In this document: one piece after another, positions 7,128-58,151 of the stretch
Layout of the letters: each line of letters begins with the position of its first letter
Numbering within the stretch: position 1 is the stretch's first letter
Assembly (NCBI GenBank): GCA_964449345.1
Contig: CAYUYT010000001.1
Location: 1 to 62,293, forward strand
Reading direction: 5' to 3'
Origin: an uncultured Spirochaetia bacterium
GTDB taxonomy: Bacteria > Spirochaetota > CALGPD01
Length of the DNA stretch: 62,293 nucleotides
Made by a program: the position numbers and the translations under genes
Notes under the pieces: model-generated
Databases searched by the model: none
Seen by the model: only the letters and a program-made list of their open reading frames with translations
What the model was told of the DNA's origin: nothing

Positions 7128-7171
7128 TTTATGGAGATTACAGATTACACTTCGCGAATACAAATATTCAC

Positions 7172-8753: not shown

Positions 8754-8780
8754 GGGATTATATAAAAAAGGGAGAAAACC

Positions 8781-10745: not shown

Positions 10746-10782
10746 TATGGCTATATAACGTTTAATCACGGAGGAAAAACAA

Positions 10783-12048: not shown

Positions 12049-12088
12049 CTATAAAACGGGTTTACAATTAATTTAAGATTAATTATAA

Positions 12089-12111
12089 TTAAGAACATCG
12101 GACGTTCTTAA
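12089..12111 (+). promoter_or_regulatory. Hairpin with GGA in the loop, upstream of fliW-csrA (candidate CsrA site)
   Basis: TTAAGAAC (12089-12096) pairs perfectly with GTTCTTAA (12104-12111), and the loop is ATCGGAC. No T-run follows, so it is not a canonical terminator. A second GGA lies in the fliW SD AGGAG (12127-12131). Confidence 0.35.
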
Positions 12112-12132
12112 TGAGAATGCCAAAAAAGGAGA

Positions 12133-12636
12133 ATGACTTTGGTGAGTACTCAAGAACTTATTGAAATTAACACAAAACCTTATGGTAAAGTAAAGGTTAG
12201 CAAAAAACAACGGATTGTATTTAACGAAGGCCTTTACGGTTTTGAGAACGAAAATGAATTTTATCTTCTTGATATGGAAGAAGATGACGGGCCTTTTTAC
12301 TATCTTCAAAGCGGAAACAATGAAGATTTGGTTTTTATTTTAATCAATCCGTATACATTTAAAAAAGATTTCGTTTTAGACGTTTCCCGTGGGGATTTGA
12401 AAAAAATTAAAGTAGATAATCCTGCTGAAAACCTTGAGGATAAACTCCTCGTTTTTTCAATCGTAACAATTCCTGAAGACGGGGCGGATATGACAGCCAA
12501 TTTACTAGGCCCGATTGTTATTAACGTTGAAAAACAATTAGGAATTCAAGCCCTTTCCTTAATCGAGGGGTACACAACGAAACACAGTATTTTAAAAGAA
12601 CTTGAAAAGAATAAAAATGACGAGGGAGTGGCCTGA
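12133..12636 (+). CDS. fliW: Flagellar assembly factor FliW
   Basis: The peptide FNEGLYGFENENEFYLLD and the overall size match FliW, and the gene abuts csrA. ATG 12133 sits only 1 nt after AGGAG, so the true start may be in-frame TTG 12139 or GTG 12142. Confidence 0.88.
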   Translation: MTLVSTQELIEINTKPYGKVKVSKKQRIVFNEGLYGFENENEFYLLDMEEDDGPFYYLQSGNNEDLVFILINPYTFKKDFVLDVSRGDLKKIKVDNPAENLEDKLLVFSIVTIPEDGADMTANLLGPIVINVEKQLGIQALSLIEGYTTKHSILKELEKNKNDEGVA

Positions 12637-17282: not shown

Positions 17283-18068
17283 TTACTTTTTTCGTTGACT
17301 TGCAATTACCCGGCTTTTCCATTCAATTGTTAAAGCGTTAGTAAAAGTCAAAATAAAATTTATTTTGCCAATCATGCGTGTCCAATACCCGTTTTTTATA
17401 TCCCAGTAATAAATTCTTTCATATTTACCGATTAACCTTGCGGGCTTTAAATAACGTGGTCTAACCCTTGAATAACCAGGTACGTGGATAAGATTATTTA
17501 AGTTTTTATTAACAACGTAGAAGCATTGAATTACTGCGTGTTTTCTTCCGTTCAAAGTTTTATTTTTTAAATACCTATAACGGGCGTTAAATTTTAATCT
17601 GAATGGCTTTTTAATACCTATGCTACGGAAATCTATTATTTCCTCGCCTGGTTTTTCCCAGAAATTTGATATGCTTATTTTTTTATCGGGAAAAGCAGGG
17701 GTTCCAGTGCTTTGAGGATAAAAAGCGTTTTTATCAAAATACATTTTTCCTGAATCGTTACGTATAAATTCACCGCGTCCCGTGTTTGTTTTTCCGCTTT
17801 TTTTTCTGCTGCCAAAATCGTAACTAAATTTTATGCCCCTTGAAGTTTTTTGCAACGCTTTTTGAACAGAACTCCACTTAGAATTGCTTTGGGATTTTAA
17901 TACGTTGTTTTGATAATAGTTAACTTTAGTGTTTCCGTTAATAGTAAAAACGTCTCTAGGTTTTTGTTTAAACCTAAACAAAACGGCTTTTTTTTCTTGG
18001 GAACTAGATATGCTACCGCAGATGTATGCATTTAAAAGTATAAATAAAATCGTAAATATTTTTTTCAT
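17283..18068 (-). CDS. Hypothetical secreted protein
   Basis: Signal peptide MKKIFTILFILLNAYICGS, 261 aa. I recognise no family. Confidence 0.5.
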   Translation of the reverse strand: MKKIFTILFILLNAYICGSISSSQEKKAVLFRFKQKPRDVFTINGNTKVNYYQNNVLKSQSNSKWSSVQKALQKTSRGIKFSYDFGSRKKSGKTNTGRGEFIRNDSGKMYFDKNAFYPQSTGTPAFPDKKISISNFWEKPGEEIIDFRSIGIKKPFRLKFNARYRYLKNKTLNGRKHAVIQCFYVVNKNLNNLIHVPGYSRVRPRYLKPARLIGKYERIYYWDIKNGYWTRMIGKINFILTFTNALTIEWKSRVIASQRKK

Positions 18069-18267
18069 CTAGTTTTTCAACACCTCAATATATATTATCG
18101 GTTTAATTTTATATTAATAAAAAAATCCGGTTTATTATGAAAGAAATCCGCGGTTTTGGTGATATAATAAAGAAATGCATATAAGCGGATTGCTAATGCC
18201 AAGAAAAACCTCCAATAATTATAAAGAATTAAGGCAAATCAGGTGTTACCGGGTTTGCCTTAATACG

Positions 18268-18666
18268 TTAATCAAGTTCCCCTGAATCTTCCAATTCATC
18301 AAGATAATCATTCATTTCTTCGATATCTTCCGTATATAAAACGTCGCAATCTTCACAGACTTTTTTATGAAGCTTCCATAACCAATGATGCGCATTATCC
18401 TGTTTATGAGGAGAGATAACGCATTCAGGGTCACTTAAATCCATAAAGTCTTTAATTTTATCAACCATATTATCTATGTATTCATCGTATTCTTCATGAA
18501 CGCCTTTGATCCTCCTTGCGCTTCGTAAAACTTCACGAAAATAGACTTTCTCCTTGCCTGATTTTGTGGTTTGTAAAATAGTTATGCCTTCTTTAAAATT
18601 ATGATTAAGCTCGTTAAATTGTCTTAGAGTCTCGATATTACAAAAAGGATTGGCTTTTTTTGGCAT
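18268..18666 (-). CDS. Hypothetical acidic-tailed protein
   Basis: 132-aa ORF with GGAGG upstream (reverse complement of cctcc at 18674-18678) and C-terminus DDYLDELEDSGELD. It is divergent from 18807. I recognise no family. Confidence 0.45.
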   Translation of the reverse strand: MPKKANPFCNIETLRQFNELNHNFKEGITILQTTKSGKEKVYFREVLRSARRIKGVHEEYDEYIDNMVDKIKDFMDLSDPECVISPHKQDNAHHWLWKLHKKVCEDCDVLYTEDIEEMNDYLDELEDSGELD

Positions 18667-18806
18667 TGTATATCCTCCGGTTTTAATAATTAACTTTAAA
18701 ATTCGTACTAAAAAAAATCAAGGAAAAAATATTTTATTAAGTTTAAGTAAAAATTAACCTGCGAAGATTTTATTACGATAATATATTAAAGGTATTAAAA
18801 GAAAAA

Positions 18807-19646
18807 ATGTTTAGTGAAAAAACCATATTGATTTTTTCAGGGTTACTGGAAAATATAAATAACGCAGAAGAATTGGCGAAAATTGCAAAATCAATTTCCC
18901 CGGAAATAGTATCTGAAAAAATAAATGACGTAAAAGGAATAACGGATTATTTTTTTAAAAAAAACCGTATTTATGACTGGATTAATTCGGTTTTAAACAG
19001 GATTGGCTCTGCAAATATTTACGGAATCAGACAATTTCTTCAGGAACTTGAAAATGATAAATTGTTTTATAACCATGAAACAAAGTGCATTGAAACTTTC
19101 AGCCGGGAAAAACATAACTGCCCTAACTGGGGATTGTTTGGCGAAGGAGACAAAGTTTTCGTTTGCATGGCAAGAATAAAACTAACGGAAAAAAAAGAAA
19201 AGCAAATCGATTTAAATAACGCTTTTTACAATTTCGTATCGCCAAAAATAAAGTCATTTAACGGCAGGATATGGAATTTCAACAAAGGCAATTTTACAGC
19301 GGGGTTTTTTCCGGGCAATAAAACAGATGCCTGTATTGAAACAGCAATTGACATTCTATTAAATATGCCCGTTTTCAACAACTGGTATTCTCCGGCACAG
19401 GATAACGTTAACGTTAGAATATCATGCGTAGCGGATTTCGTTAATTATACAAATATAACGAAAAACATTTTCGGTCCGGCTGTGGGAATGATTAATTTAC
19501 TTGAGGACAGAATGGAAGATAATACAATATTGATACATGAAAATTTGTTAAATCAACTTTTACCGGCTAAGCAAAAAGCTTTTCAAAACAACGGACGAAT
19601 AGGCGATGAAAAATTATTTAATTTTTTTTGTGAAATAGGTAAATAG
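18807..19646 (+). CDS. Hypothetical protein with degenerate class III cyclase-like (CHD) C-terminal domain
   Basis: Residues ~115-265 follow the CHD pattern by eye. VFVCMARIKL stands for LFaDIvGF, NGRIWNFNKGNFTAGFF for GxxiKtiGDaymavF, VNVRISCVADFV for lxlRIGIhtGpV, and FGPAVGMINLLEDRMEDNTILIHENL for GDtVNlAsRLEslAepgxIlvSe. Both metal-binding Asp positions appear substituted. Confidence 0.45.
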   Translation: MFSEKTILIFSGLLENINNAEELAKIAKSISPEIVSEKINDVKGITDYFFKKNRIYDWINSVLNRIGSANIYGIRQFLQELENDKLFYNHETKCIETFSREKHNCPNWGLFGEGDKVFVCMARIKLTEKKEKQIDLNNAFYNFVSPKIKSFNGRIWNFNKGNFTAGFFPGNKTDACIETAIDILLNMPVFNNWYSPAQDNVNVRISCVADFVNYTNITKNIFGPAVGMINLLEDRMEDNTILIHENLLNQLLPAKQKAFQNNGRIGDEKLFNFFCEIGK

Positions 19647-20885
19647 ATGAAAACTATTCAAACTTTAATATATTCTACCAATAGAAACCTTATACATAAA
19701 ATTCAAAGCGCACTTGAAATTGTGCCTGCTAAATATGCAGGAGATTTTCGTTTTAATTTAATTTTTGAAGACGATATAAGAAAATTTCAATTGCGTTTGA
19801 ACGAAAATATATTAGATTTGTACATTATTGAACATGACGCGGCTTTGTCTCAAGGGTTCAAAGCTCTGGATATACTTAAAAAACAACGAGAAACAAAACC
19901 TGACTTTCTAGAAAACGCAAAAATAATTTTCATCGGCCCGGATGATGCTAAAACCGTTGTAAAAGCTTATGAAAACGCGTTTTTAAGCGGATATGAAATC
20001 ATGAAGGATTTAAAATCGGAAAATTTCGCAGCTAAAACAATTGATAAATATTTCATACAACAACCTAACCAAACAGTTAATAAAAAAGAAGAAAGCCTGG
20101 ATAAAAACAAAAAAGCAAAACAAACCGGAAATGAACAGATTTTCGATGAGTTGCTTTTATTATTAACGGGCAACTACGTTGATATTGCTGAAAATTTAAA
20201 AAAAGCAGTTTATGAAAAAAAAGAGCTAGAACAAAACGCAAAAAAATTGAGTAAGGAAATAGAAGATTTAAAATTAGCGTACAAACAAAACGAAATAGCT
20301 AAAATCGAGAATATCAAACCGGCAAAACAGAACATGGAAGATTGGCCTTTTAAAAATGAAAATGGTAAATCTTTAGAACAAAAAATGTTTTTTTTAGATA
20401 TTCGAATTTTTATTAATCCGGGAATTAAGCAAGTTTATTTGCGTTATGAAATTCAAATACTTTTGGATTTGATATATAGATTTTTCAATTCTCATTTTCA
20501 GCATTATGAACACGTTACCCTGCTGTCAAATACGGATAGGGTCTTATGCGTATTTAATTCAAGTAACGCAATTAAATGCGCCCTTGAAATAATTATTGAA
20601 CTCGCAAAAATTAATTATACCGAAAACGCGATTTTAAAAAACTTTAAATTTAATATGGGAATAGATTTTCACGATGTAAAAAATGCCCATAACGCAGGGG
20701 ATATTTTAAAAAAAGCCGATTTGAAAACAATTGAAAAAATATTAAACAATGTCAAACCGGCAAACACTTTATATGTAACAGGGGAAGTTTATAATACCCT
20801 TGGGGAAAAAATAAAAAAGTTTTTTAAATATCACAAAAAATCAAAAAATCTTAGCTTCTATTCTTATTACGCTGTATATGGTTAA
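19647..20885 (+). CDS. Hypothetical protein: pseudo-receiver-like N-terminus, coiled coil, degenerate class III cyclase-like C-terminus
   Basis: The ATG directly abuts the stop of 18807-19646. The N-terminus has DLYIIEHD...KIIFIGPDD in a receiver-like layout without the acidic DD pair. The C-terminus has MFFLDIRIF (D251), SNTDRVLCVF (D297), NAIKCALEIIIEL, FKFNMGIDFHDV and PANTLYVTGEVYNTL. Confidence 0.45.
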   Translation: MKTIQTLIYSTNRNLIHKIQSALEIVPAKYAGDFRFNLIFEDDIRKFQLRLNENILDLYIIEHDAALSQGFKALDILKKQRETKPDFLENAKIIFIGPDDAKTVVKAYENAFLSGYEIMKDLKSENFAAKTIDKYFIQQPNQTVNKKEESLDKNKKAKQTGNEQIFDELLLLLTGNYVDIAENLKKAVYEKKELEQNAKKLSKEIEDLKLAYKQNEIAKIENIKPAKQNMEDWPFKNENGKSLEQKMFFLDIRIFINPGIKQVYLRYEIQILLDLIYRFFNSHFQHYEHVTLLSNTDRVLCVFNSSNAIKCALEIIIELAKINYTENAILKNFKFNMGIDFHDVKNAHNAGDILKKADLKTIEKILNNVKPANTLYVTGEVYNTLGEKIKKFFKYHKKSKNLSFYSYYAVYG

Positions 20886-21260
20886 TTTGCCGTTATTTTA
20901 AATCATTAAACGTAACGCTATCACCGTTATTCCACTTTCGAATTTCAACCATACCACAGTAATATGTAGGTTTTGTAAAATACTAAATCAAAATCCAAAA
21001 TGTATTTTTTAATAAAATTTTCACTTTCATATTAAATTATTTTACAAAAAAAATGCAGTGTGATAGTTTTTTGCTATTTTGTAAACTGTAATTTATTAAA
21101 TAGATGTAAGTTAGAAAGACAAATTCGGATGATTTTATAAATTTAAATTTTCACCTTTAAAAAATAAAATATGGCGTTTTATTACTATTGTGTGTAAAAT
21201 TCTACTCACAAAATATTATTACGGTTGCCGTTTACATTCCTTATATTTATACTCATATTT

Positions 21261-22547
21261 ATGGAAATTGCGTTAATAGAAATTAAAAAAGCCGGAGACA
21301 ACAAGGATTATAATGCCGGTTTCGGAACGACTTTTAATTTAAAAACAACGCCTTTAACCTTTGTTTTAAAAAAAACCAGAAAACATTTAGAAAAATTTCC
21401 TACTATTTCTTATGCTTATATTTCAGCAATATTTAAAAAATTTAATCACGTTGTTAATTACTATCAAAACGCGTTGCCTATTGATTGTTCCTTAGCACTA
21501 TTAAACGTAACGGCAATACGGCATAAACAAGAAATACAAATAATTAACGAAATAAAACGCAAAAAAAAATATAAAATCGGGGTTTACGGCGCTTTGGCAA
21601 CTGTTATGCCTGAATTGTTTAAAAACGTTGATTTTATAATCACGGGGGAACCGGAAAACGCTGTATTTAGCATAGCAAAAACGGGAAAAATACCACAAGG
21701 AATAGTTAAATCTTTATATGTAGAGGAATTAGACTCCTTGCCCTTTCCCGACTGGGATATATTTGATGTAAAAAAATTTTCCTATTCGCCTTTGCTTACG
21801 TATAAACCCTTTTTATTTATGCAAAGTTCTCGCGGGTGCAAATTTTCTTGCTCATATTGCCCGCATCGGTTAAACGGTAAATACCGTAAACGCAGTATTC
21901 AAAACGTATTAGATGAAATGCTATATTTAAAAGAAAAATACAGGGTTAAGGGAATACATTTCAGGGACTCATACTTTAATTTTAACGAAAACGAGGCGCA
22001 GGAATTTCTTAGCGAAATGATTAAACGCCGCCTTGATATTAAATGGGGAATGGAAACAAGGATAGATTCTTTAAATACAAAACTCGTTGATATTTTGTAT
22101 GATGCCGGGTTGCGCGCTGTAAAAACAGGCATTGAAAGTTCAGATATGAAATTGCTCGAAAAATTTAACAGAATGTCTCCTGATTTGGAGCACGCAAAAA
22201 ATGTAATCCGGTATTGCAACGGAAAAAAGATCAAATCCAACGCTTGTTATATCTTAGGTTTTCCTTCACAGGATAAAACCTTGCTTAAAAAAACGCTTGA
22301 TTTATCTTTTGAAATAAAATCAACTTTTGCGAATTTTTTCATTCTAACGCCTTTGCCCGGCACTAATTTTGACACCATTTTTGATTTGGAAATAACGGAT
22401 GAAAACTTAAACCATAGGGACAATTTTCACCTTGTTTTTAAACATGAAAATTTTACAAATAAGGAACTTAGAAAAATTCAGGCAAACTTTATTTCACGTT
22501 ATTATTTTCGTTATTCGTGGATTAAAAATTATGTAAAAATAAAATAA
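21261..22547 (+). CDS. B12-binding-domain radical SAM protein
   Basis: The CX3CX2C cluster is SSRGCKFSCSYCPH, preceded by a Rossmann-like segment (KIGVYGALATVMPELFKNVDFIITGEPE). I prefer ATG 21261 (MEIALIEI) over the TTG at 21225 listed in the ORF track. Confidence 0.75.
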   Translation: MEIALIEIKKAGDNKDYNAGFGTTFNLKTTPLTFVLKKTRKHLEKFPTISYAYISAIFKKFNHVVNYYQNALPIDCSLALLNVTAIRHKQEIQIINEIKRKKKYKIGVYGALATVMPELFKNVDFIITGEPENAVFSIAKTGKIPQGIVKSLYVEELDSLPFPDWDIFDVKKFSYSPLLTYKPFLFMQSSRGCKFSCSYCPHRLNGKYRKRSIQNVLDEMLYLKEKYRVKGIHFRDSYFNFNENEAQEFLSEMIKRRLDIKWGMETRIDSLNTKLVDILYDAGLRAVKTGIESSDMKLLEKFNRMSPDLEHAKNVIRYCNGKKIKSNACYILGFPSQDKTLLKKTLDLSFEIKSTFANFFILTPLPGTNFDTIFDLEITDENLNHRDNFHLVFKHENFTNKELRKIQANFISRYYFRYSWIKNYVKIK

Positions 22548-22617
22548 AATTTTTAAAAAAAACAAACCATTTTTTCGTTTTAAGTGTTAGAATACATAAC
22601 ACGGCAGGAGCATTTTT

Positions 22618-23559
22618 ATCCGTACTACTACAAACAAATACATATTTTTAATAATAGCAATTATTTTCTGTTTTGCCTCTGTTAGCGCTCATGCAAAGTA
22701 TGCCAATCCCGGCGTTGCAAATGATAAAAGCTATGATTTTGATAAATATTATAAAGATAATAATTTTAGTTTTAAAAATTACTCAAGAACCGGCCGCCAA
22801 CCTCAAAAATTTGCTCTGGTTATCGGTCAGAATAACTACAAAAAACGCCCTTTAAAAACGTGTGTAAACGATGCAAAAGCAATGACAAGAGTATTTAAAA
22901 CGAGTTTATTCGTACCCGAAAAAAACATAAGATTATTTTTAAACGAAAGCGCAAGCAAAAACCGAATAATCAGGGCTTTTAAGTCCCTTGCTAGGGTAAC
23001 AAAACCCGGTGATAAAGTATTTTTTTATTACTCCGGGCACGGAATAAGAACGTATGACGACTTAAAAGGAGAAAAAAGCACAAGTTTACTCCTTTCAACA
23101 GGAGAAAAAATTAGCGCAAGGCTTTTCGGGAATATGGTTAAAAAAATTAAAGCGTTATCCGTATCCTTTTTAGACAGTTGTCATTCAGGCGGTATGATTT
23201 CACAGGATTTTATATTCAACGTAAAAAAAATATCTAACCCCGTTGTAAACCGCAGGGCTTATTTCGTTGCATCGAGCAAGTCCGAAGAAACGTCAATGAC
23301 TATTCCTCTTTATAAACACAGCAGATTTACATATTTTCTAAGCCGGGCAATTTTGAGAAACAGAGCAGATTTAAATAAAGACGGGAAACTCAGTTTACAG
23401 GAAGTTTTTAGCTGGAGCAAAAAACAAACCCTGCTTTTCGGAGAAAAATACGGAGCTTTGCATAATCCCGTTATTTACGGCAAAAACCCGTCTTCAGTAA
23501 TATTGAACGAAAAAACCAAAAGAGATTTACCTTCAAATCCTGAAGATTTTTCAGCATAA
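22618..23559 (+). CDS. Secreted caspase-like (peptidase C14) protein with EF-hand-like loop; proposed ATC start
   Basis: The catalytic dyad motifs are FFYYSGHG and LDSCHSGG, and the domain entry FALVIGQNNYKKRPLKTCVNDAKAM lies upstream of the listed ATG (22882). The frame is open from 22600 and encodes RTTTNKYIFLIIAIIFCFASVSAHA with no ATG, GTG or TTG. AGGAG (22606-22610) sits 7 nt before ATC 22618. DLNKDGKLSLQE (23368-23403) fits the DxNxDGxLxxxE Ca-binding loop. Confidence 0.7.
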   Translation: MRTTTNKYIFLIIAIIFCFASVSAHAKYANPGVANDKSYDFDKYYKDNNFSFKNYSRTGRQPQKFALVIGQNNYKKRPLKTCVNDAKAMTRVFKTSLFVPEKNIRLFLNESASKNRIIRAFKSLARVTKPGDKVFFYYSGHGIRTYDDLKGEKSTSLLLSTGEKISARLFGNMVKKIKALSVSFLDSCHSGGMISQDFIFNVKKISNPVVNRRAYFVASSKSEETSMTIPLYKHSRFTYFLSRAILRNRADLNKDGKLSLQEVFSWSKKQTLLFGEKYGALHNPVIYGKNPSSVILNEKTKRDLPSNPEDFSA

Positions 23560-27542: not shown

Positions 27543-28898
27543 TTGAAATCAGGAGTTAATTTAATTTCAAATACGCCCATGCCCGAGAAAATATGTGATT
27601 CGGCGGCGCGTTTATCTCAGGTTGATAAAACCGGCAGTGAAATATACAATACAGAATACCCAAAATTCGTCATCCCGAATGTTATTAAATTAGGCCATAA
27701 AAGCGTTGCTGAACACGCTTACTTTAATTTCGTTTTCGAAAACGTAAGTGTTTTTGTTGAACACTTTATGATTGAATTCCGGTTAGCATCATTCACGGTT
27801 AAATCCCGCCGTTACGTTGATTTTAGAAAAGCAGGATTTACAATACCGGATTATCTTAATAAAAAAAAATTTTCTCATTTGAAAAAAAAGTTTATTTCCA
27901 ACGCAGAATATTTATTTGAAACGTATTCCAAACTCGTTGACATTAAAATCCCAGCCGAAGACGCGAGGTTTATCTTACCTTACTGTTTTAAATCAAATTT
28001 TTTCTTATCTATGAACGCCAGGGAATTAATGCACGCAATTTATTCCATGATAAAAGGAAAAGGAAGTAAATATAAGGAAATAAAATCATTGGGCGAGTCA
28101 ATGCTAAGTCAATTAGAAGAAATAGCCCCTTCAATGTTTAACAATCTTTTATCCCTCATTAAAGGTAATGAAGATAAATGGAAAAAATTAAATACATTGT
28201 TAAAAGATAACAAAAAAAACGTAAAGAATAATAACGTAGAAATATTATCTGCTTCAAAAGATGCTCACGAAAACATTATTAAAGGTGTTTGTTCCGTAAT
28301 AAATACAGATTACGAAAAGCTATCTGAACAAAAAAAACGGGAAATATTAAACGTATTAATTTCTGACCGCCGGGCACGTGAACTTGAATTAGCAAATTTT
28401 GTTTTTTCCTTTAATAATATATCTTATCCGTTTTTAACGCATTTTATTCGACACCGAATTCATTCCCCTGTAATTCCCCCGTTTGAATACACCGGTTATG
28501 AAAGCGTTGTTACTCCGCATACTATTAAACAAAATCGTCACGCTCTTGAAATTTTTAATAAAGCGGTTGAAAAAAACGTTAATTTTAATGAGATGGTAAT
28601 TAAAGCAGGCGTGCCAGAAGAATATTACGTTTATTCCAGGATAGCAGGAAACGTATTAAATATAACAACGTCAATGAACGCGCGTGAATTATATCACTTT
28701 TTTGCACTAAGAACTTGCGAGCGGGCACAATGGGAAATTAGGGAATATGCCCAGGAATTGCTCATCAAACTAAAAAAAATAAACCCGTTAATTTTCCAAA
28801 AAGCCGGACCCGGCTGCGTTTTATACGGTATATGTCCCGAAGGTAAAATGAGTTGCGGTAAAATTAAAGAAAAACAGGAGTTCTATAACTCAATATGA
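27543..28898 (+). CDS. thyX: FAD-dependent thymidylate synthase, tandem two-domain form
   Basis: Two ThyX-like halves are present. Half 1 has GHKSVAEHAYFNF, EFRLASFTVKSRRY (27777-27815) and ARFILPY...SMNARELMH. Half 2 has FIRHRIHSP (RHR at 28449-28457) and SMNARELYHFFALRTCERAQWEIREYA. At 451 aa it is about twice the usual ThyX length. The start is uncertain (TTG 27543 or ATG 27579). Confidence 0.75.
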   Translation: MKSGVNLISNTPMPEKICDSAARLSQVDKTGSEIYNTEYPKFVIPNVIKLGHKSVAEHAYFNFVFENVSVFVEHFMIEFRLASFTVKSRRYVDFRKAGFTIPDYLNKKKFSHLKKKFISNAEYLFETYSKLVDIKIPAEDARFILPYCFKSNFFLSMNARELMHAIYSMIKGKGSKYKEIKSLGESMLSQLEEIAPSMFNNLLSLIKGNEDKWKKLNTLLKDNKKNVKNNNVEILSASKDAHENIIKGVCSVINTDYEKLSEQKKREILNVLISDRRARELELANFVFSFNNISYPFLTHFIRHRIHSPVIPPFEYTGYESVVTPHTIKQNRHALEIFNKAVEKNVNFNEMVIKAGVPEEYYVYSRIAGNVLNITTSMNARELYHFFALRTCERAQWEIREYAQELLIKLKKINPLIFQKAGPGCVLYGICPEGKMSCGKIKEKQEFYNSI

Positions 28899-42500: not shown

Positions 42501-45476
42501 GTGAGCGGCAAATTAGAATCAGTACCGGACAGTCAATACATTAAGAACCTATATTTAAGAATAATTTTTGCGAATATAATTATTCAGTTTATTTTTTACA
42601 ATATTAACTTATTCATTTCAAGTATTTTTGATTCATATACAAACTTAAATTTTGTAAGTAAATTCATTAAAAGTTATTTAAGTATTTCCGTTCCGCTTTA
42701 TTTTATTTTCACAATTATTTTATCTTTAATAATTCTGAAAATTGTTTGGCCCCTTATTAAATACGTTAAAACGCATCAGGGTTATGATAAAGCAAGAATA
42801 GCAACCGTCCGCCTGCCGTGGATTTTAATTATAATCTATATAATTGCATGGACAATAGGGTCTATTACTTCATTAATTTTTAGCAGTGAAAATTATCCCC
42901 TTGCTTATTACGTTCTTGAAGGGTTTAGGGATGTTAGCACAGGGTTAATAGCCACGGTTTTTACAATATTCTATTTAAAAAATTCAATGATTGAAATAAA
43001 GCGAAAATTAAACATTAACACTATAAACAAAGGGGAATACGATAATTTTTATAAATATAAATCCTATTTTGTGGTCTTGCCGTTGCTTCTTTATTCCATA
43101 TCAAATTTTTCCTATATTATGTATTATTTTAACTATAAAGGGCAAAATACTAATACAATATCCGAGTTATTAACAACGGTTTTAATTTTAAGTTCATACC
43201 TCATAATCATTTCTATAATACTAACAACTATTTCAAAAATCGAAGATAGAAAGCAAACAGAAATCGTTATAGATAAACTTGACGATTTAATAAATGAACG
43301 CGGAAGTCTGAAAGAAAAACTCGTTATTTTAAATTTCCACGATTTCGGAAGGGTTACGCAAAAAGTTAACGAGTTAACGGAAAAAATATCCAAGCAAAAG
43401 GATTTACTCGAGGATAAAGTAAAAGAGCGGACATCCGAATTAAAGCTTGCATATGAACAATTAAAAGAATTCGACCAGCTTAAAACAAATTTTTTCGCAA
43501 ACGTATCTCATGAAATTAGAACGCCCCTAACATTAATTTTAACACCAATAGAATCAATCATTGACGGTGATTTTAAAGACGAGGTGGATATTAATTTTTT
43601 CATTAAGCTGTATAAAAACGCAACAAAATTATTAAATTTAATTAATGACCTTTTGGATTTTTCAAAAATTGAAGCGGGGAAAATCAAGCTAAAAATAACG
43701 GAAATTAATTTGCAAGACTTGATTCAAAGCCAGGTAGATTTGATGAAAAATCATTGTATGAGCAAAAACATCGAATTAAATTTTTTTACAGGGAATGAAT
43801 ATTTACCCGTATTTGCAGACAAATTAAAGCTTGAAAAGGTTTTCATCAATTTATTATCAAACGCTCTGAAATTTACCCCGCAAAAAGGTAACATAGAGAT
43901 TAAAATTAAAAACAATAAAAAAAATTATTTAATCTCAGTTAAAGATAACGGCATCGGCATTCCTCAAAACAAAATACACAAAATATTTGATAGGTTTTGT
44001 CAAATTGAAAACGATTTACACGGTGATTTCACAGGAACGGGTTTAGGTCTTTCCATTATCAAGGAATTCATTGAAATGCACAACGGAAAAATAACTGTTT
44101 TTAGCAGAGATATTAAACACGCGCCGGAAAATCACGGCACAGAGTTTAAAATAACGCTTTTAAAAGGCAAGGAACACTTTAAAAATAAACAATTCGTTGA
44201 GTTTGCAGAAGAACAAGTATTTTTTAATAACAAAAAAATAGAAACTCCTAAGATTAATTCCCTTAATTATGAACAACCATTTAAGCAAGATAAAGAAAAA
44301 TACGGTAAAAGTCTAGGTCATAAAATTTTAGTGGTTGAAGATAATGAAGATATGCGGGAATTAATTAATTTTTATCTGGAAAATGAGTACAAATTATCGT
44401 TTGCAGAAAACGGAAAAATAGGCATTGAAATCGCAAGAAAAATCCTTCCTGATTTAATTATAACGGATATAATGATGCCGGTGATGGACGGATTTGAGAT
44501 GGCGGCAAGAATAAAACAAGATGATTTAACAAAAACCATTCCCGTTTTGATGTTGACTGCCAAAGCCAATATTGAAAACAAAGTACATGGATTTGAATAC
44601 GGGGCGGATGATTATTTAACTAAACCCTTTAACTACAAAGAATTATATGCAAGAATAACGTCCTTATTAAAAATAAATCAGCTTCAAAAAAAATTAGAAA
44701 AAGCAAATATAAATTTACACGATAAAGTTGAAGAATTGCTTGAAAAGGAACGAATAATTAATAACGACCTTTTAATCGCAAAAACAATCCAGCAAAATAT
44801 ATTGTCTCAAGGCATAGATGAAAACGAAAGAATCAGTACTGTAATAAAATATTTGCCTCAATACGAAGTTGGCGGTGATTTTTATAATATTTTTGAATTA
44901 CGAAAAAACGTATTTCGCTTTTTCATTGCAGACGCTACGGGGCACGGTATTCCTGCCGCATTAACAACCATGCTCATTAAAAGTGAATACGAAAAAATGA
45001 AAGTATTTGAACTTGAACCCGGCATTATTTTAACATTATTGAACGAAACATTTGTTCAGCAGTATTACAATATTAGTCTGTTTTTTTCCTGTTTTATTAT
45101 GGATATTGACCTTGAAAACAATTCTTGCAGTTACGCTTCTGCCGGACATCCTGAAATGTATTTAAAAAACCACAATGAAATTATTTCCCTTTATAGTTCT
45201 GGCGGATTAATCGGCATCAAAAAAGAACCTACTTATCAAACAGCAGATATTAATATTAAAAAAGGAAATACAATATACCTTTTTACCGATGGAATTATTG
45301 AACAAACTGATAATAATAATAAAGAATTCGGCGAAATAAACATTAAAAATATTATTCAAAAAGCAAACGCAAATATAAACTCTACGGTGGAAAAAATTGT
45401 AAATTCGCTATTAAACCATGCCCAGGATGAAAAACTTTCTGACGATATTATGCTAATCGGAGTAGAAATATTATGA
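42501..45476 (+). CDS. Membrane sensor histidine kinase fused to a receiver and a SpoIIE/PP2C phosphatase
   Basis: There are 6 or more N-terminal TM segments and a coiled coil. HisKA is FFANVSHEIRTPL and HATPase is NALKFT...DNGIGI...GTGLGLSI. REC is ILVVEDNEDMRE...LIITDIMMPVMDG...LTAK...KPF. SpoIIE is GGDFYNIF...FFIADATGHGIPAAL...DGIIE...DDIMLIGVE. GTG start. Confidence 0.85.
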   Translation: MSGKLESVPDSQYIKNLYLRIIFANIIIQFIFYNINLFISSIFDSYTNLNFVSKFIKSYLSISVPLYFIFTIILSLIILKIVWPLIKYVKTHQGYDKARIATVRLPWILIIIYIIAWTIGSITSLIFSSENYPLAYYVLEGFRDVSTGLIATVFTIFYLKNSMIEIKRKLNINTINKGEYDNFYKYKSYFVVLPLLLYSISNFSYIMYYFNYKGQNTNTISELLTTVLILSSYLIIISIILTTISKIEDRKQTEIVIDKLDDLINERGSLKEKLVILNFHDFGRVTQKVNELTEKISKQKDLLEDKVKERTSELKLAYEQLKEFDQLKTNFFANVSHEIRTPLTLILTPIESIIDGDFKDEVDINFFIKLYKNATKLLNLINDLLDFSKIEAGKIKLKITEINLQDLIQSQVDLMKNHCMSKNIELNFFTGNEYLPVFADKLKLEKVFINLLSNALKFTPQKGNIEIKIKNNKKNYLISVKDNGIGIPQNKIHKIFDRFCQIENDLHGDFTGTGLGLSIIKEFIEMHNGKITVFSRDIKHAPENHGTEFKITLLKGKEHFKNKQFVEFAEEQVFFNNKKIETPKINSLNYEQPFKQDKEKYGKSLGHKILVVEDNEDMRELINFYLENEYKLSFAENGKIGIEIARKILPDLIITDIMMPVMDGFEMAARIKQDDLTKTIPVLMLTAKANIENKVHGFEYGADDYLTKPFNYKELYARITSLLKINQLQKKLEKANINLHDKVEELLEKERIINNDLLIAKTIQQNILSQGIDENERISTVIKYLPQYEVGGDFYNIFELRKNVFRFFIADATGHGIPAALTTMLIKSEYEKMKVFELEPGIILTLLNETFVQQYYNISLFFSCFIMDIDLENNSCSYASAGHPEMYLKNHNEIISLYSSGGLIGIKKEPTYQTADINIKKGNTIYLFTDGIIEQTDNNNKEFGEINIKNIIQKANANINSTVEKIVNSLLNHAQDEKLSDDIMLIGVEIL

Positions 45477-51815: not shown

Positions 51816-53303
51816 TTATTCCGTTTTATCTATTATAATAATAGCAACATCATCATTAAAATGCGTTTCTTCGGTATATGAAAAAATATCATTATATAAC
51901 GCCTCAACTAATTTTTCCTGCCCAAAACTATGGTTTTTTTTAATAAAATCATAAAAACGTTTTTTACCGTAGATTTTTTCATAATCTCTAGTATGTTTTT
52001 GGGACGCTTCAATGAGTCCGTCTGTGTATAAAATAATCCTGTCGCCTTTTTCAAGGGTTACTTTTTCAACCTTAAATTCATAATTCCGATTAAAACCAAT
52101 TACTGAACCATCAGCAACGAGTTCGGTTATTTGCCCTTGCCGTATTAATAAAATTGGAAGATGCCCTGCGTTTGCATAAGACATTTCACCAAAGCGTTTA
52201 TTGATTACGCAATAAGCCCCTGAAAAATACATACCGTGCATATGATAGTTTAACGTTTCTCGAAGATAATCTAAAAAAACTCCCGGGTTTTTCTGAATAA
52301 CTCTATTATATGACATACCGAGTTTAATCATTGATGTAATAAAAGCGGCGGGTACGCCGTGCCCTGACACATCGCAAATCAAAGTACCTAATAAATCTTC
52401 TGATATTTCAATAAAATCGTATAAATCTCCGCCTAATTTATCAAGCGGGTTGTACGACGTATATATTTCAAATCCCGAAAATTTCGGAGGATGAGCCGGT
52501 ATTATACCTAATTGAATTTTACGGGCATAAGACAAATCTTTTTCTATAATTACGTTGCGTTTGGTCAATTCTTCCTTGGTTTTTTCAAGCTCGTTTATAG
52601 TATCCCGCAAATCTTTTGTGCGTTCTTTTACTTTTTCTTCAAGTGAGTTTCTTTCCTGTTCAAGTTCGTCGTAAAGCAAGGCGTTATGTATTGCTGTTCC
52701 GATTTGTTCTATAAAATATTCCATTCTGTTTATGTCGTCTTCGGTTAAATCCAATTTTTTGGTATGTGTGCTCATAAAAATTGCGCCGATTGCCTGGTCC
52801 TGTACAATAATCGGGTGAATTACGTTGCTTTTTATTTGCATTGCAATTGCAGCTTGTCTGTTTGCCGGATTTTCAATATCGTTATAATCCACTTCCGGGA
52901 AGTAAATAAAATCTTTGTTTAAGATTGATACGGCGATTGCCCCTCCCATTTTAATATTTAGAGGGAATTTTACGTTAAACAACCGTTGTTCGATTTCTTT
53001 TAAGTATTCGGGAAAACTTACTTTATAGAATTCGTAATATTTACGTTCTTTATCCACTAACATTATAACAACGCCTTCAACGTTAAATAAATTGCGTAAT
53101 TCCGTTATTATCATTTCAAGGACTTCATCTTCTTTAAGCGAAGAATTTATTGCGGTAGTTACTTTTCTAATTCTAGTAAACTCATCGCTTACTTCTTTTT
53201 TTGCTTTTTCAAGTTCGGTTTCAAGATGTTTTACCTTTGATTCGAGTTCTTTAATTTGACTTTTTAGTTGTTTAATTTTTTGCTGCGGTTTTGATTCGGA
53301 CAA
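51816..53303 (-). CDS. GAF-domain SpoIIE/PP2C-family serine phosphatase
   Basis: An N-terminal coiled coil and GAF-like segment (VVIMLVDKERKYYEF...GAIFMST) are followed by a second coiled coil. The PP2C part has GGDLYDF, LICDVSGHGVPAAF, YTDGLIE and NDDVAIIIIDK. It starts 22 nt before the hydrolase gene, so they are probably one operon. Confidence 0.8.
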   Translation of the reverse strand: MSESKPQQKIKQLKSQIKELESKVKHLETELEKAKKEVSDEFTRIRKVTTAINSSLKEDEVLEMIITELRNLFNVEGVVIMLVDKERKYYEFYKVSFPEYLKEIEQRLFNVKFPLNIKMGGAIAVSILNKDFIYFPEVDYNDIENPANRQAAIAMQIKSNVIHPIIVQDQAIGAIFMSTHTKKLDLTEDDINRMEYFIEQIGTAIHNALLYDELEQERNSLEEKVKERTKDLRDTINELEKTKEELTKRNVIIEKDLSYARKIQLGIIPAHPPKFSGFEIYTSYNPLDKLGGDLYDFIEISEDLLGTLICDVSGHGVPAAFITSMIKLGMSYNRVIQKNPGVFLDYLRETLNYHMHGMYFSGAYCVINKRFGEMSYANAGHLPILLIRQGQITELVADGSVIGFNRNYEFKVEKVTLEKGDRIILYTDGLIEASQKHTRDYEKIYGKKRFYDFIKKNHSFGQEKLVEALYNDIFSYTEETHFNDDVAIIIIDKTE

Positions 53304-53888: not shown

Positions 53889-54758
53889 TTAATCATTTTG
53901 CTCTATTGTTATTTGCCCTGTTCTGTGTTTGATTATTTTATAAACAAGTCCTTTAACCGGAATTTTTAAAACAATCAATCTCTGCACTGTACGAACGCCT
54001 GGCAAGAATAATTCCTTTTGCTCTAAATTAGTCCAAATCTTTTGATTTTTTGCGTAATTATTAGGATCTAAGATATATATATCAAGGTTCGCTTTTGCCC
54101 GGTCTCTCTTTGCAAGCCTAAATTTTACGCCTAATACGCCTGCCCATAAAAATTTATGTTCAAAACCCAAAAACGAAATCCATTTTTTATAATAAAGCTG
54201 ATAAGCAAAAATCCCTATCTGGTTACCTCTAACGCGGACTTTCTCATGCACCTTTTTAATGTCCCCGTCATCAAGTTCTTCAATTCGCATGGTAATAAAA
54301 TCCGCAGCCGAGTTAATTATTTTTATCCTTCCTACTGTTTCTTCTTTAAAAAGTAAATAAAGACTCCTGTTTAGCATTATAAACATTGCAATGAAAGCAA
54401 TTATTAATAAAACAAAAACCGAACCTATAATTTTTTTCAAACGCAAAAATAAAAAGAATATTATCGCTGATACGGCTAAAGTAATTAGCTGTGTATAATG
54501 AAATTTTGAATACCTGAAAAACAGAAAAAAAACAACAATATATAAAACAGCCAAACTTACTCTAATAAAACGCGTTTTAATAAATTTAACAACAGGGTTT
54601 GCCTGTTTTTCTCCTTGTTGATAATCTTGGCGGCGGGACGTTTCAAGCGAAGATTTTTGCTTTTTCTTTTTTTTAGATGCTAAAAGTGCAATGAAAAAAC
54701 CAAGCCCGGTTGCTAAAAAGTGATTTAATAATCCGTAGAGTGAATAATCAAGCTTCAT
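53889..54758 (-). CDS. Hypothetical multi-pass membrane protein with ~150-aa C-terminal soluble domain
   Basis: About 4 hydrophobic helices (aa 10-130) and then a soluble C-terminal half. It starts 17 nt after the oxidoreductase gene stop on the same strand. I recognise no family. Confidence 0.5.
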   Translation of the reverse strand: MKLDYSLYGLLNHFLATGLGFFIALLASKKKKKQKSSLETSRRQDYQQGEKQANPVVKFIKTRFIRVSLAVLYIVVFFLFFRYSKFHYTQLITLAVSAIIFFLFLRLKKIIGSVFVLLIIAFIAMFIMLNRSLYLLFKEETVGRIKIINSAADFITMRIEELDDGDIKKVHEKVRVRGNQIGIFAYQLYYKKWISFLGFEHKFLWAGVLGVKFRLAKRDRAKANLDIYILDPNNYAKNQKIWTNLEQKELFLPGVRTVQRLIVLKIPVKGLVYKIIKHRTGQITIEQND

Positions 54759-54775
54759 AGATTTACTGCAATTCC

Positions 54776-55351
54776 TTATTTAATATTTGCGACGATTTTT
54801 TCTGCCTTTAAAAGCCATTTTTCCCGTTTTTTATCTGTGGAATTATCAATAGAAGCAAAACTAAACCATTTTACTTTTTTTATTCCACAGAATTTAAGCG
54901 TTCCTTTTATTAACGTTCTTTTTATAGGGCTTTTTAAAAAACATGAGTAATAAAACTTAGGTGAACTCATTGTTGTGAAAACTGCTGCCCCTTTGAAGTG
55001 TTTTAAATACGGCTTTGGAAATATTTTTTCTTTTTTAAAAGCAAATAAAGGCAAAAACACTTTATCAATAAATCCCTTTAAAATTGCGGGCATTGTTGTC
55101 CACCAAATAGGGAAAACGAAAAATAAATATTCAGCATTTTTAATTCTATCCTGATATTGTTTTACTTTCGGGTCTTTTGATTCACCTTTTGAATAAACAG
55201 CAAGGGATTCTTTATCAAGCACAGGGTTAAAATTATCCTCGTTCAAATCCAAAATATCAATTTCGTTGTTATTTTCTTTTAAGCCCTTTTGAATTTTTTC
55301 CAATATTGCATTATTGAAACTTTTTTCGTAGGGATGGGCATATATTATCAT
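54776..55351 (-). CDS. Flavodoxin-like fold NAD(P)H oxidoreductase (Flavodoxin_2 / quinone reductase family)
   Basis: The internal start is MIIYAHPYEKSFNNAILEKI. DLNEDNFNPVL and AEYLFFVFPIWWTTMPAILKGFIDKVF match the NQO/MdaB/KefF-type family. The start is moved from 55429 to 55351 so the gene no longer overlaps the upstream gene. Confidence 0.8.
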   Translation of the reverse strand: MIIYAHPYEKSFNNAILEKIQKGLKENNNEIDILDLNEDNFNPVLDKESLAVYSKGESKDPKVKQYQDRIKNAEYLFFVFPIWWTTMPAILKGFIDKVFLPLFAFKKEKIFPKPYLKHFKGAAVFTTMSSPKFYYSCFLKSPIKRTLIKGTLKFCGIKKVKWFSFASIDNSTDKKREKWLLKAEKIVANIK

Positions 55352-55376
55352 TACTTTCACTTGCAACCTCCTAAGA

Positions 55377-57596
55377 TTAAATATACCAAAAAATATCGAG
55401 TGAGCGGGCGAAATGAGCAAACCTTTCAATTTTTTTTATCCCTTGTTTTGTTAAACAGCATGAAAATACATTAATGCCTTTGCCGATTTTTGACATAGAG
55501 CGCATAAGCCCGATTGTAACGTCAAAACCCGTTATGTCTAATGTGGAAAAATCAATAACGTAACGTGACTGATCGCCTAAAATAGCAAGGGTTATATCAA
55601 AATTCGCTTTATATACATCTGGATTGCGCTCGTTAAAAGATAATAAAGCAAAGGATTTAAAATTTTTAATATCAAGAACGCCTTTACGTATAAACGTTAT
55701 TTTTATTTTTTTTTTGCTTGCATAGTTTTCATAATCAAGAAAGTCCTGCGATTTTTTAAAAACTACGTTAAACGGAGCATAAGTCCCATTAGCAATGGAT
55801 TTAAAGATTTCTTTTTTTAACGCATTATCTTTTTGCGCTTTGCTTTTTACATAATTTAGCAAGGTGTTATCAAAACTAAAAAGGCGTTTTAATATTTCGT
55901 CAAAATGTTCAAATTCAAACTCACCGTTATAAGCAAGGTATGAAATATGTTCAAGATAACGTCTTTCCTGTTTGGTGGGAAAACTTATTGAAACCTCATC
56001 CGGCGTAACGTTATTTGCCTTTAAGTAACCGTATGCGTGTTTTACCTTGTCTTTTTCTTCAGACAAAGACCATTCGATAATTTTTTCCGTTAACAGCCCG
56101 CTGCCCGGTTTGGAATACAAATTTTTATACAATTCGGGGAATAAATAATAGGGTGAAATTTCAATTAAGGTTAACAACGTATTAATTGAATAACCGTTAA
56201 TTTCTGGCAACACCTGCGCTGATTTTATCGCAACTTCACGATTATTGGATAAAAGTCCGTATTTAAGAGCATTGAAAAATTGTTCATAATTCATTTTTCC
56301 CTTTTCAAATAAATCTTTAAAAACGGAAACAATCATGGACTGGTTTTCACTTTGTTTGGAAAGGGAATCCACAACGCTTTGTTCCAAATAAGAAATAAAG
56401 AAATCCATGCATTCAGGGAAAAAATCCGATAATTTTTTTATCCAATATTGCCTGTTTTCCTTAGAAAAATCATTTTTAAGCTCGCTTTTAGTAACGAGTT
56501 CGGTTTCATCCAAATTCAATTCAAGTTTCACCTTGTGCTTGTTGATTTCATTTAAACGTATTAAATCAAGATACAAATCCGGATTGTATGAAAAATCCTG
56601 TGTAGCTCTTTCAACTAATTCGCGTACGCGGATTAGCTCAAGTTCCTGTTTTGATAAACCGGATAAAAGTTTTTTTACAAGATATTCATGCGCTATTTCA
56701 TAACAATCACCAACTTTTTTCAATATTCTCGATGTTACTAAAAAATTTATCTCGTGCAAGTTTTCTTTGTAATTACAAATACGCGTTCTTTCTCCTGTAC
56801 TTGATATTCCTTTTTTTAAAACCCTTTTTTGCGTTTCTGTTAAATTTTCATATAATCTGTCATAAAAACCGTCTATTTTATTATAAACTTCTTGTGATGT
56901 TATTTCATTTATTTCATCTTCATTATTTTCATGGAAAAGTTCATACCCTACTGCCTGAACGTCGGCGAGTTCTATTTTTCCCGTTGCTTTTTCAAGCGTA
57001 TCGATTACTGTTGTTGCGAAACCTTGTGAAATTTTGACTCCCGCGCTTTTAAAAATTTTAATAAAAACGTCAATTACATTGCTTCTTTCCATTTTATACA
57101 AATGAAAACCCGTTTCATCTGACAATAGAGAAAAATTATTTTTTGCCGAAAACTTAAAAAGCTCTCCTATACTTTCTTCACGAATTATTATTAATAGCTT
57201 AAAATCCCGGTTTTCTAAAAAATCATTGACAACGTATTTAACAAATTGAACGTTTGCCGCCGGGTCATAAAATATTTTTTCAAACTGGTCAAGTGCAATA
57301 ACAGGGCGCTTCAATGACTTGGTCGTTTGAAGAAACTTTATATAATCCGCATTTTTTAATCCGGTTCTTTTTTCAAGATAATCATGCGTATAGTCTTCAA
57401 TGTATACATCCGGCTCAAGCCCTGCTTTGCAAATTGAAGATTTTCCCGCGCCGGAAGGGCCATAAAAAATAACAATATTGTTTGCAAGTTTTTTTTCAAG
57501 CTGGGAAATTTCTTTTTCCCTGCCGAAAAAAGCGTTTTTGTTCGTCGCGTTGTAATTATCCCATAAAATAAACGGGTTATTCTTTTTATTTTTCAT
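55377..57596 (-). CDS. STAND-type P-loop NTPase with helical middle region and C-terminal STAS-like domain
   Basis: FFGREKEISQLEKKL...IVIFYGPSGAGKSSICKAGL is the Walker A region, VIALDQFEKIFY is a DQFEE-type Walker B, and LLIIIREESIGEL follows. The last ~100 aa (YVIDFSTLDITGFDVTIGLMRSMSKIGKGINVFSCCLTKQGIKKIERF) align by eye to SpoIIAA-type STAS ([46 protein letters not shown]). Confidence 0.7.
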   Translation of the reverse strand: MKNKKNNPFILWDNYNATNKNAFFGREKEISQLEKKLANNIVIFYGPSGAGKSSICKAGLEPDVYIEDYTHDYLEKRTGLKNADYIKFLQTTKSLKRPVIALDQFEKIFYDPAANVQFVKYVVNDFLENRDFKLLIIIREESIGELFKFSAKNNFSLLSDETGFHLYKMERSNVIDVFIKIFKSAGVKISQGFATTVIDTLEKATGKIELADVQAVGYELFHENNEDEINEITSQEVYNKIDGFYDRLYENLTETQKRVLKKGISSTGERTRICNYKENLHEINFLVTSRILKKVGDCYEIAHEYLVKKLLSGLSKQELELIRVRELVERATQDFSYNPDLYLDLIRLNEINKHKVKLELNLDETELVTKSELKNDFSKENRQYWIKKLSDFFPECMDFFISYLEQSVVDSLSKQSENQSMIVSVFKDLFEKGKMNYEQFFNALKYGLLSNNREVAIKSAQVLPEINGYSINTLLTLIEISPYYLFPELYKNLYSKPGSGLLTEKIIEWSLSEEKDKVKHAYGYLKANNVTPDEVSISFPTKQERRYLEHISYLAYNGEFEFEHFDEILKRLFSFDNTLLNYVKSKAQKDNALKKEIFKSIANGTYAPFNVVFKKSQDFLDYENYASKKKIKITFIRKGVLDIKNFKSFALLSFNERNPDVYKANFDITLAILGDQSRYVIDFSTLDITGFDVTIGLMRSMSKIGKGINVFSCCLTKQGIKKIERFAHFARSLDIFWYI

Positions 57597-58094
57597 GTAA
57601 AAAATTTTCCATAAAAAGCATTTTTTCTTTCAATCATTATAATTTGTTTATTACAAAATTGCAATCATTAGTAAAAATAATTTCCAAAGGAAAAACATGA
57701 ATTTTATAAAAAAATTTCAATCTCGTTTACGGTAAATAGGATTAATTTAACTTATGGGTAATTATTTTTTGTCGGTATTACTTGGGAATTATCATAATCA
57801 AGGGAAAAGTTATCCATACAATAGGTATATATACCAACTATATAAGGTTGTTGAGATTCTGTCCTTATTTTTCTGTAAAAATAAAATGAAAAAATAAAGT
57901 ATGCAGGGTACGCAATAGCGGGAACATTTACAGCAAGTGTATCTTCGCATTATCCGTTTAAAAAATTAAAATAGAAATGATATTATGTGAATGATTTTTG
58001 ACTAAACATAGCATCGGATATATATTTATCAATTTTTTTAAAAATATTATTTCAAATCCTGTCAATTTTTTGTAATTTTATATTAGCATATCTA

Positions 58095-58121
58095 AGCCTA
58101 ACAAAGCAAGGTTAGGTTTTT
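58095..58121 (+). promoter_or_regulatory. Terminator-like hairpin in the lipA leader
   Basis: AGCCTAAC-aaagcaag-GTTAGGTT followed by TTTTT ends 30 nt before the lipA ATG. No plus-strand gene lies upstream. Confidence 0.4.
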
Positions 58122-58151
58122 AAAGAATTAATATACAAATAAGGGTGTAAA

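Follow-up and report, generated by a model that had tools for sequence, protein, structure and literature searches.

An nSTAND1 NTPase with an orphan C-terminal half, encoded beside a polytopic membrane protein in a few related lineages

Among the systems closest to the locus described here are the Avs and bacterial NACHT defense proteins, reportedly the subject of work by Gao et al. in 2022 and Kibby et al. in 2023, and Cap15 of the cyclic oligonucleotide-based antiphage signaling systems (CBASS), a transmembrane (TM)-plus-beta-domain effector of abortive infection with two TM helices. The nSTAND1 nucleoside triphosphatases (NTPases) were named from predicted counter-invader systems of prokaryotic conflict (Kaur, Iyer, Burroughs & Aravind 2021, PMC8195603), and a 2026 census of STAND proteins by Lee et al. 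classed 198 of 589 STAND clades as defense-associated, so that a STAND domain by itself does not imply defense (PMC13581612). Here we analyze a stretch of 62,293 nucleotides from an uncultured Spirochaetia bacterium (assembly GCA_964449345.1, contig CAYUYT010000001.1; this whole stretch is called the window) and, within it, a minus-strand cassette encoding a STAND NTPase, a flavodoxin-like oxidoreductase and a four-helix membrane protein. The STAND gene and the membrane protein gene make up a rare and uncharacterized variant of a known protein class, and a STAND protein presenting a STAS module, as an original prediction from the sequence had proposed, found no support in the tests run.

The STAND NTPase and the genes that accompany it

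The first gene of the cassette (55377–57596, minus strand, stop codon included) encodes a protein of 739 aa, of which residues 13–335 (56592–57560, minus strand) match the Pfam family nSTAND1 (PF20703) over profile positions 6–371 of 379, with an E-value of 6e-23 and a score of 82.5 bits (cutoff 27.1); the match thus covers almost the full profile of the nSTAND1 conflict NTPases (PMC8195603). In the alignment of orthologues, the P-loop GPSGAGKSS occupies residues 46–54 (G46–S54, 57461–57435, minus strand), the Walker B sequence LDQFE residues 102–106 (L102–E106, 57293–57279, minus strand) and IIIREE, with the sensor Arg139, residues 136–141, while an EIAHEYL motif closes the C-terminal end of the module. 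Walker A, Walker B (D103/E106), R139 and EIAHEYL are invariant in the orthologues, which carry the same precomputed nSTAND1 match, and the same motifs are common to unrelated nSTAND1 proteins, namely P0004 and the 1387-aa WD40 protein of locus L008, in an alignment that also held the truncated family member P0010. With the described conflict NTPases the protein shares the motifs FFGR, GPSGxGKSS, DQFE, R(E/A) and EI(A/S)H. Judged by its sequence, the protein is a genuine STAND NTPase of the nSTAND1 family with intact motifs. This agrees with the original prediction, which had picked out a P-loop near the N-terminus, an ALDQFEKIF Walker B region and LLIIIREE after it.

No effector or adaptor domain is fused to the N-terminus in Pfam, since only 12 residues precede the nSTAND1 match. 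The lack of an N-terminal effector had been predicted correctly, but it is not the oddity it was taken for: the other nSTAND1 proteins that we compared (those of L008 and L012, and P0004) likewise have short leaders only. The cassette protein differs from the described nSTAND1 conflict NTPases in having neither an N-terminal effector-associated domain nor an enzymatic effector, in a dedicated 4-TM partner encoded downstream, and in its C-terminus, an orphan region where the proteins of L008 and L012 and the published examples carry WD40, TPR or FGE/C-lectin domains.

In accordance with the original prediction, the three genes are real, closely spaced open reading frames (ORFs) on the minus strand (57596–55377, 55360/55351–54776 and 54758–53889). 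The middle ORF can be read as 194 aa from GTG 55360 or as 191 aa from ATG 55351. We regard the GTG as probably the true start because AGGAGG precedes it by 6 nt, the orthologue in locus L001 has the same length of 194 aa, and the protein collection contains an identical 194-aa product; with this start the gap to the STAND gene is 16 nt rather than the 25 nt first given, whereas the 17-nt gap between the flavodoxin-like and membrane protein genes stands. A consensus scan, which is weak evidence, places a sigma-70-like promoter match (TTGCAA-17-TATAAT, 57636–57664, minus strand) ∼40 nt 5′ of the STAND start codon and finds no terminator-like site in either intergenic gap; the sole same-strand terminator-like site between the STAND start and the end of the cassette lies within the membrane protein gene. 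Upstream, an unusually long, AT-rich intergenic region of 555 nt (57597–58151) separates the STAND gene from the divergent lipA, and an 11-codon upstream ORF inside it overlaps the STAND start codon. This region is not conserved in L001, L013 or L015, and screening for signs of insertion, for conserved DNA ahead of the gene and for RNA families returned chance AT-rich repeats only, with no conserved leader and no Rfam match.

The second gene (54776–55360, minus strand, 194 aa from GTG 55360) was assigned to the Flavodoxin_2 NAD(P)H oxidoreductases in the original prediction, and this assignment is borne out: its product matches Pfam Flavodoxin_2 (PF02525) with an E-value of 5e-36 (124.6 bits against a cutoff of 27), and its best match in the PDB is the NADPH quinone oxidoreductase 3LCM (E 4e-33, residues 1–193). 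It carries the motifs YAHP...SFN and FP(I/V)WW...P(A)xLKGxIDKV, which we take to be the flavin-binding motifs of the NQO1/MdaB/KefF-type family. The match to that family is full-length, and the gene differs from it only in its non-conserved position between the STAND and membrane protein genes. The product reads as an ordinary NAD(P)H:quinone oxidoreductase, and only where its gene sits is unusual.

The third gene (53889–54758, minus strand) encodes a 289-aa protein whose orthologues also lie downstream of a STAND gene. Hydropathy places TM segments at residues ∼9–27, 63–81, 88–105 and 110–128, followed by a C-terminal domain of ∼160 aa without a family match, so the prediction of a roughly 4-TM protein with an uncharacterized soluble domain was sound. 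The protein has no match in Pfam, PADLOC, PHROGs or the PDB, and a Foldseek search with its AlphaFold2 (AF2) model, which has a predicted local distance difference test score (pLDDT) of 49.4, yields none, a result that we disregard because the model is poor. The C-terminal domain is beta-rich in this low-confidence model, very basic (25–31 Lys/Arg vs 13–17 Asp/Glu) and essentially cysteine-free. By charge counts, loop 1 is Lys-rich with 10–11 Lys/Arg and loop 3 is basic with 2–3, against 1–2 in the opposite loops, and under the positive-inside rule both termini, including the C-terminal domain, are predicted to lie outside the cytoplasm. The arrangement resembles CBASS Cap15 in combining N-terminal TM helices with a beta-rich domain beside a sensor or switch gene. 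It differs in showing no sequence or PADLOC similarity to Cap15, in having four TM helices rather than two, in the predicted extracytoplasmic placement of the beta-rich domain, and in the lack of a second-messenger synthase.

The family is known from 4–5 lineages. Full-length STAND orthologues are P0002, at 67% identity, from an uncultured Spirochaetia metagenome-assembled genome, and P0003/P0132, at 44%; a frameshifted copy (L015), a C-terminal fragment (L005) and the truncated P0010 also belong to it. The membrane protein falls into five clusters at 47–73% identity. A pattern scan of 185,579 species-representative (GTDB) genomes returned one locus only, and a scan of Joint Genome Institute (JGI) metagenomes returned none of this family, only distant nSTAND1-WD40/TM proteins. 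In L015 (1300–1589), which represents a further lineage, the STAND homologue stops after residue 390 and its middle region continues in another frame, the frameshift being either a sequencing error or a sign of a pseudogene.

The order STAND–flavodoxin–TM is found in the window and in L001/L002, while L003/L007/L013/L014 (86-nt gap) and L005 (25-nt gap) have STAND–TM without the flavodoxin-like gene, which is thus present in two lineages and absent, and evidently dispensable, in two. Conservation of the predicted three-gene order therefore holds for part of it: adjacency and co-direction of the STAND and membrane protein genes are kept in four lineages, at 44–73% protein identity, and the flavodoxin-like gene is not. 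The flanks change around this pair. In the window they are AHSA1 and GAF-PP2C genes on one side and lipA-lipB-ackA on the other, in L001 dnaG-rpoD against a radical-SAM gene, and in L013 a secreted-like 388-aa protein with response regulators against coaX-birA. Since the flanks differ in all three loci where they are readable while the pair stays, the conserved unit is the STAND–TM pair, with the quinone reductase as a facultative addition. The three proteins of the window and those of L001 have diverged in step (STAND 67%, flavodoxin-like 64%, TM 67–69% identity), and the orphan C-terminal half of the STAND protein and the membrane protein are confined to the same few lineages.

These observations bear on the simplest alternative, that the three genes are mere neighbors without a functional link. 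The flavodoxin-like gene is indeed clearly separable from the other two, and the STAND and membrane proteins share no domain. We nevertheless consider this reading improbable, as the STAND–TM adjacency is kept at these identities while the flanks change completely, the intergenic gaps are short and hold no terminator-like site, and the two orphan families occur in the same lineages. The link of the STAND gene to the downstream membrane protein gene, which the original prediction had drawn, is in this respect upheld.

Two of the related loci hold further genes next to the cassette. The 388-aa protein of L013 (7800–8966; also L003, 1752–2918) has an N-terminal hydrophobic segment resembling a signal peptide and belongs to no family; its gene lies on the strand of the STAND gene, 82 nt ahead of it, and in this lineage alone, with no counterpart in the window or L001. 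Downstream of the cassette in L001 (9936–16439), a gene for a TerB-domain protein adjoins one for a DnaJ-domain protein, and farther along lie genes for two double-zinc-ribbon (DZR) proteins, of which one carries a fused Rce1-like CPBP protease domain.

The orphan C-terminal half and the STAS reading

Beyond the NTPase module, the STAND protein consists of a middle region (residues 336–625, 55722–56591, minus strand), which belongs to no known family and reads by eye as mostly alpha-helical, and a C-terminal domain of alternating beta and alpha elements (residues 626–739, 55380–55721, minus strand), to which no family could be assigned and which shows a STAS-like pattern within ∼40 residues. 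Residues 336–739 have no match in Pfam (E<=1) or in a PDB profile search (E<=10), and no C-terminal repeat family (TPR, WD40, LRR or HEAT) was found at these thresholds, although divergent helical repeats may be present in the middle region. A HMMER search of 1.84 billion representative proteins with a profile of these 404 aa matched only the family itself (2 full-length orthologue clusters and the truncated P0010) and, spuriously, the repetitive adhesin-like P0011. We also tried an LRR reading, suggested by a beta-alpha periodicity of ∼25–29 residues, and rejected it, as the spacing judged by eye misfits LxxLxLxxN/C and Pfam gives no LRR family.

Between the window protein and P0002, identity is 68% in the NTPase module, 67% in residues 336–470, 59% in residues 471–625, the least conserved stretch, and 73% in residues 626–739, the best conserved. 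The beta/alpha domain, no less conserved than the NTPase, is under constraint, as would be expected of a functional interface, and is not a fast-evolving sensor tip. The cassette protein is like the Avs and NACHT proteins in joining a STAND switch to a long C-terminal region that could be a sensor. The ∼400 aa that follow its NTPase lie within the size range that defines sensors in Lee et al. 2026 (PMC13581612). It differs from the Avs and NACHT proteins in that no effector of the nuclease, protease, TIR or SIR2 kind is fused to it, PADLOC gives no model match, and its neighborhood holds no defense genes.

The original prediction read the last ∼100 residues as a SpoIIAA/RsbV-type STAS domain (PF01740), which a STAND oligomer would present for phosphorylation-dependent partner switching with the PP2C phosphatases nearby. 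Pfam finds no STAS domain in the full 739-aa protein (E<=1) or in the last 150 aa of three orthologues (E<=10), a profile search of the PDB with the C-terminus (E<=10) brings up no STAS chain, and phmmer with SpoIIAA and RsbV finds no match among all ORFs of the window and the related loci. We then compared a three-sequence profile of the last 150 aa by hhalign with a narrow STAS profile (20 SpoIIAA plus RsbV) and with a diverse one, built from SpoIIAA, RsbV and 11 plasmid-borne STAS genes of Firmicutes, Actinobacteria, Proteobacteria, Deinococcus and Nostoc. The narrow profile gave a probability of 4.7% (score 21, P 0.0086) and the diverse one 14% (score 23.4, P 0.002), whereas STAS proteins left out of the diverse profile were recovered at 98–99% with scores of 80–103. 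The score of the C-terminus exceeds those of 200 of 200 column shuffles, but unrelated 150-aa segments of window proteins score 19–23, in the same range or higher. Scored one sequence at a time, the three orthologues take ranks 1, 15 and 26 of 211, the third in a different register, and in semi-global alignment they rank 10, 96 and 214 of 283. A scan of viral contigs for STAS genes gave no match.

The only alignment to SpoIIAA/RsbV is local, pairing FSTLDITGFDVTIGLMRS...INVFSCC with a stretch ending in EMVVCAI. It is not a full-length collinear match, although its 36–42 columns fall in the right register (beta3, 'DSSG' loop, alpha2, beta4) and share a hydrophobic pattern of strand, loop, helix and strand over ∼40 residues. 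The predicted strand and helix order of the C-terminus also fits STAS if residues 70–84 of the 150-aa segment form a helix, and it fits other small alpha/beta domains as well. In the hhalign alignments MDS(S/T)G is paired with LDITG, so the conserved Asp of the C-terminus aligns with the Asp of the MDSSG motif, and the position of the phosphorylatable Ser is held by Ile688 (Ile/Ile/Leu in the three orthologues). The Thr of DVT, which had been proposed for that position, falls instead inside helix alpha-2.

The context of the cassette bears on the same reading. As predicted, two genes with SpoIIE/PP2C domains, identified in Pfam, lie within 15 kb of it: 42501–45476, which encodes a 991-aa HisKA-HATPase_c-receiver-SpoIIE/PP2C hybrid, and 51816–53303, which encodes a GAF-PP2C protein. 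The prediction had seen no RsbW-type kinase, and neither an RsbW-type nor a STAS protein is found by Pfam among the ∼53 ORFs of the window, nor by phmmer with SpoIIAA and RsbV. Near the orthologous cassettes of L001 and L013 there is no SpoIIE/PP2C, STAS or RsbW-type gene, which speaks against a wiring to the PP2C neighbors. Taken with the background-level scores, the Ile/Leu in place of Ser and the missing cognate kinase, this makes partner switching through the C-terminus highly improbable. A STAS-like fold as such is doubtful, and a domain working as a SpoIIAA-type phospho-switch is very unlikely.

An AF2 model of the last 150 aa, built from a 3-sequence alignment, was obtained with a mean pLDDT of 44.6, too poor for use, and the top 50 Foldseek matches of this model hold mostly RNase H-like folds and no STAS protein; they carry no weight in either direction. 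Both AF2 models are poor because only 3–5 homologues exist. The matches nevertheless raise the idea that the beta/alpha domain is itself the effector, for instance a divergent RNase H-like or PD-(D/E)xK nuclease, with the membrane protein incidental or an anchor. They include Argonaute PIWI, retroviral integrase, terminase nuclease and RNase H, with a best E-value of 3.5e-3 and TM-scores of ∼0.3–0.4, and the domain and its approach hold invariant acidic residues (D618, D621, E623, D642, D667, D687 and D692) along with an invariant D642-x-K644. However, the first predicted strand lacks the acidic residue that an RNase H fold requires, the Asp of the fourth strand is Ser in P0003, and no nuclease family matches in Pfam or the PDB. 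We rejected both nuclease folds, as the conserved catalytic residues are not in the right elements, and regard an effector function of this kind as scarcely likely.

Proposed coupling to the membrane protein and its possible role

Our best explanation, which we put forward tentatively, is that the STAND NTPase is an NTP-gated switch with a polytopic membrane protein as its dedicated, functionally coupled partner, whether the role is in defense or in signaling. We infer the cue, the oligomerization, the direction of signaling and the physiological role of the module along the following lines. A cytoplasmic nSTAND1 NTPase without a fused enzymatic effector would be held off by its orphan C-terminal half, which would bind a cue; binding would lead to nucleotide exchange and oligomerization, as in other STAND proteins, and the assembled NTPase would act on the membrane protein, or be governed by it, through the Lys-rich cytoplasmic loop 1. 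The output may be a change in membrane integrity or transport, and in a conflict system it would resemble abortive infection. The quinone reductase would be an optional passenger or modulator and not part of the core. The promoter-like site upstream and the lack of terminator-like sites in the gaps are consistent with such a module, with the weakness of the consensus scan already noted. A conflict role is suggested by the nSTAND1 pedigree, by the rarity and patchiness of the family and by the movement of the pair between contexts.

Several points weigh against this explanation or against a conflict role for the module. No cassette protein shows recognizable effector chemistry. With the large C-terminal domain of the membrane protein predicted to be extracytoplasmic, a cytoplasmic STAND protein could touch only its short loops, and hhalign finds no domain common to both through which they might dock homotypically. 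Because only 4–5 lineages are known and these are related to one another, the adjacency counts for less than one kept over several phyla would. In PADLOC-DB 2.0 the sole match of the STAND protein is mad8 (E 0.023), at the level of the P-loop, and the second gene and the membrane protein match nothing; the neighbors of the cassette are housekeeping genes without a defense-island context, and the census proportion of 198 of 589 clades (PMC13581612) means that the STAND domain alone does not imply defense. The housekeeping neighbors, the lack of a PADLOC match and of a recognizable effector, and the outward TM domain fit a signaling role at least as well.

This leads to an alternative in which the module has nothing to do with defense: the 4-TM protein would sense an envelope or redox cue on the extracytoplasmic side and relay it inward to the STAND switch, and in some lineages the quinone reductase might tie the module to the quinone or redox state, KefF/KefG with the KefC/KefB channels offering a loose analogy for a quinone reductase with a membrane partner. 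The insertion of the quinone reductase gene in two lineages would fit such a scheme. So would the chromosomal setting among housekeeping genes in each of the three loci whose flanks are readable, the predicted N-out/C-out topology with 13–14 Lys/Arg in loops 1 and 3 against 1–2 in the opposite loops, the fairly even conservation of the STAND protein without a hypervariable sensor region, and the fact that most STAND clades are not defense-associated (PMC13581612). What makes us think it somewhat unlikely is that the STAND protein has no DNA-binding or other output domain detectable in Pfam or the PDB, that nSTAND1 was defined from conflict systems (PMC8195603), and that the extreme rarity and patchiness of the family, with one match among the 185,579 species genomes, suit an accessory gene more than they would a core regulator.

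A more specific version of the coupling would be a minimal 'split' STAND system, in which an NTPase without a fused effector or a classical repeat sensor is wired to a separate, outward-facing 4-TM protein and passes signals across the membrane. Such a system could respond to an extracytoplasmic cue or drive an effector directed at the envelope, its C-terminal adaptor would be unprecedented and possibly a very divergent, non-phosphorylatable STAS-like fold, and the quinone reductase would be a facultative third component. We rate this specific version as distinctly unlikely.

Other genes of the window and significance of the pair

Elsewhere in the window, a stand-alone caspase-like Peptidase_C14 protein (22882–23559, E 6e-11) is encoded ∼32 kb from the STAND gene and preceded by a radical-SAM gene (21225–22547) and four family-less ORFs (17283–20885); the region 17283–23559 could be a separate conflict-type module. 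A SIR2-family protein (5393–6145) and a PDDEXK_2 transposase-like nuclease (7172–8059) are encoded together at 5393–8059, adjoining the flagellar genes flgN-flgK-flgL-fliW (8259–12636). A ThyX (Thy1) protein at 27543–28898 contains two Thy1 stretches in 451 aa, presumably about twice the usual length of ThyX, and has the look of a flavin-dependent thymidylate synthase that was duplicated in tandem or fused.

As it stands, the STAND–TM pair is one more uncharacterized architecture among several hundred STAND clades, found in few uncultured lineages. If the coupling of the STAND NTPase to the membrane protein is true, it would represent a new type of output or input for bacterial switches that resemble nucleotide-binding leucine-rich repeat (NLR) proteins, in which a separate polytopic protein with an outward-facing domain is joined to the switch, and the pair would offer two orphan domains worth solving.

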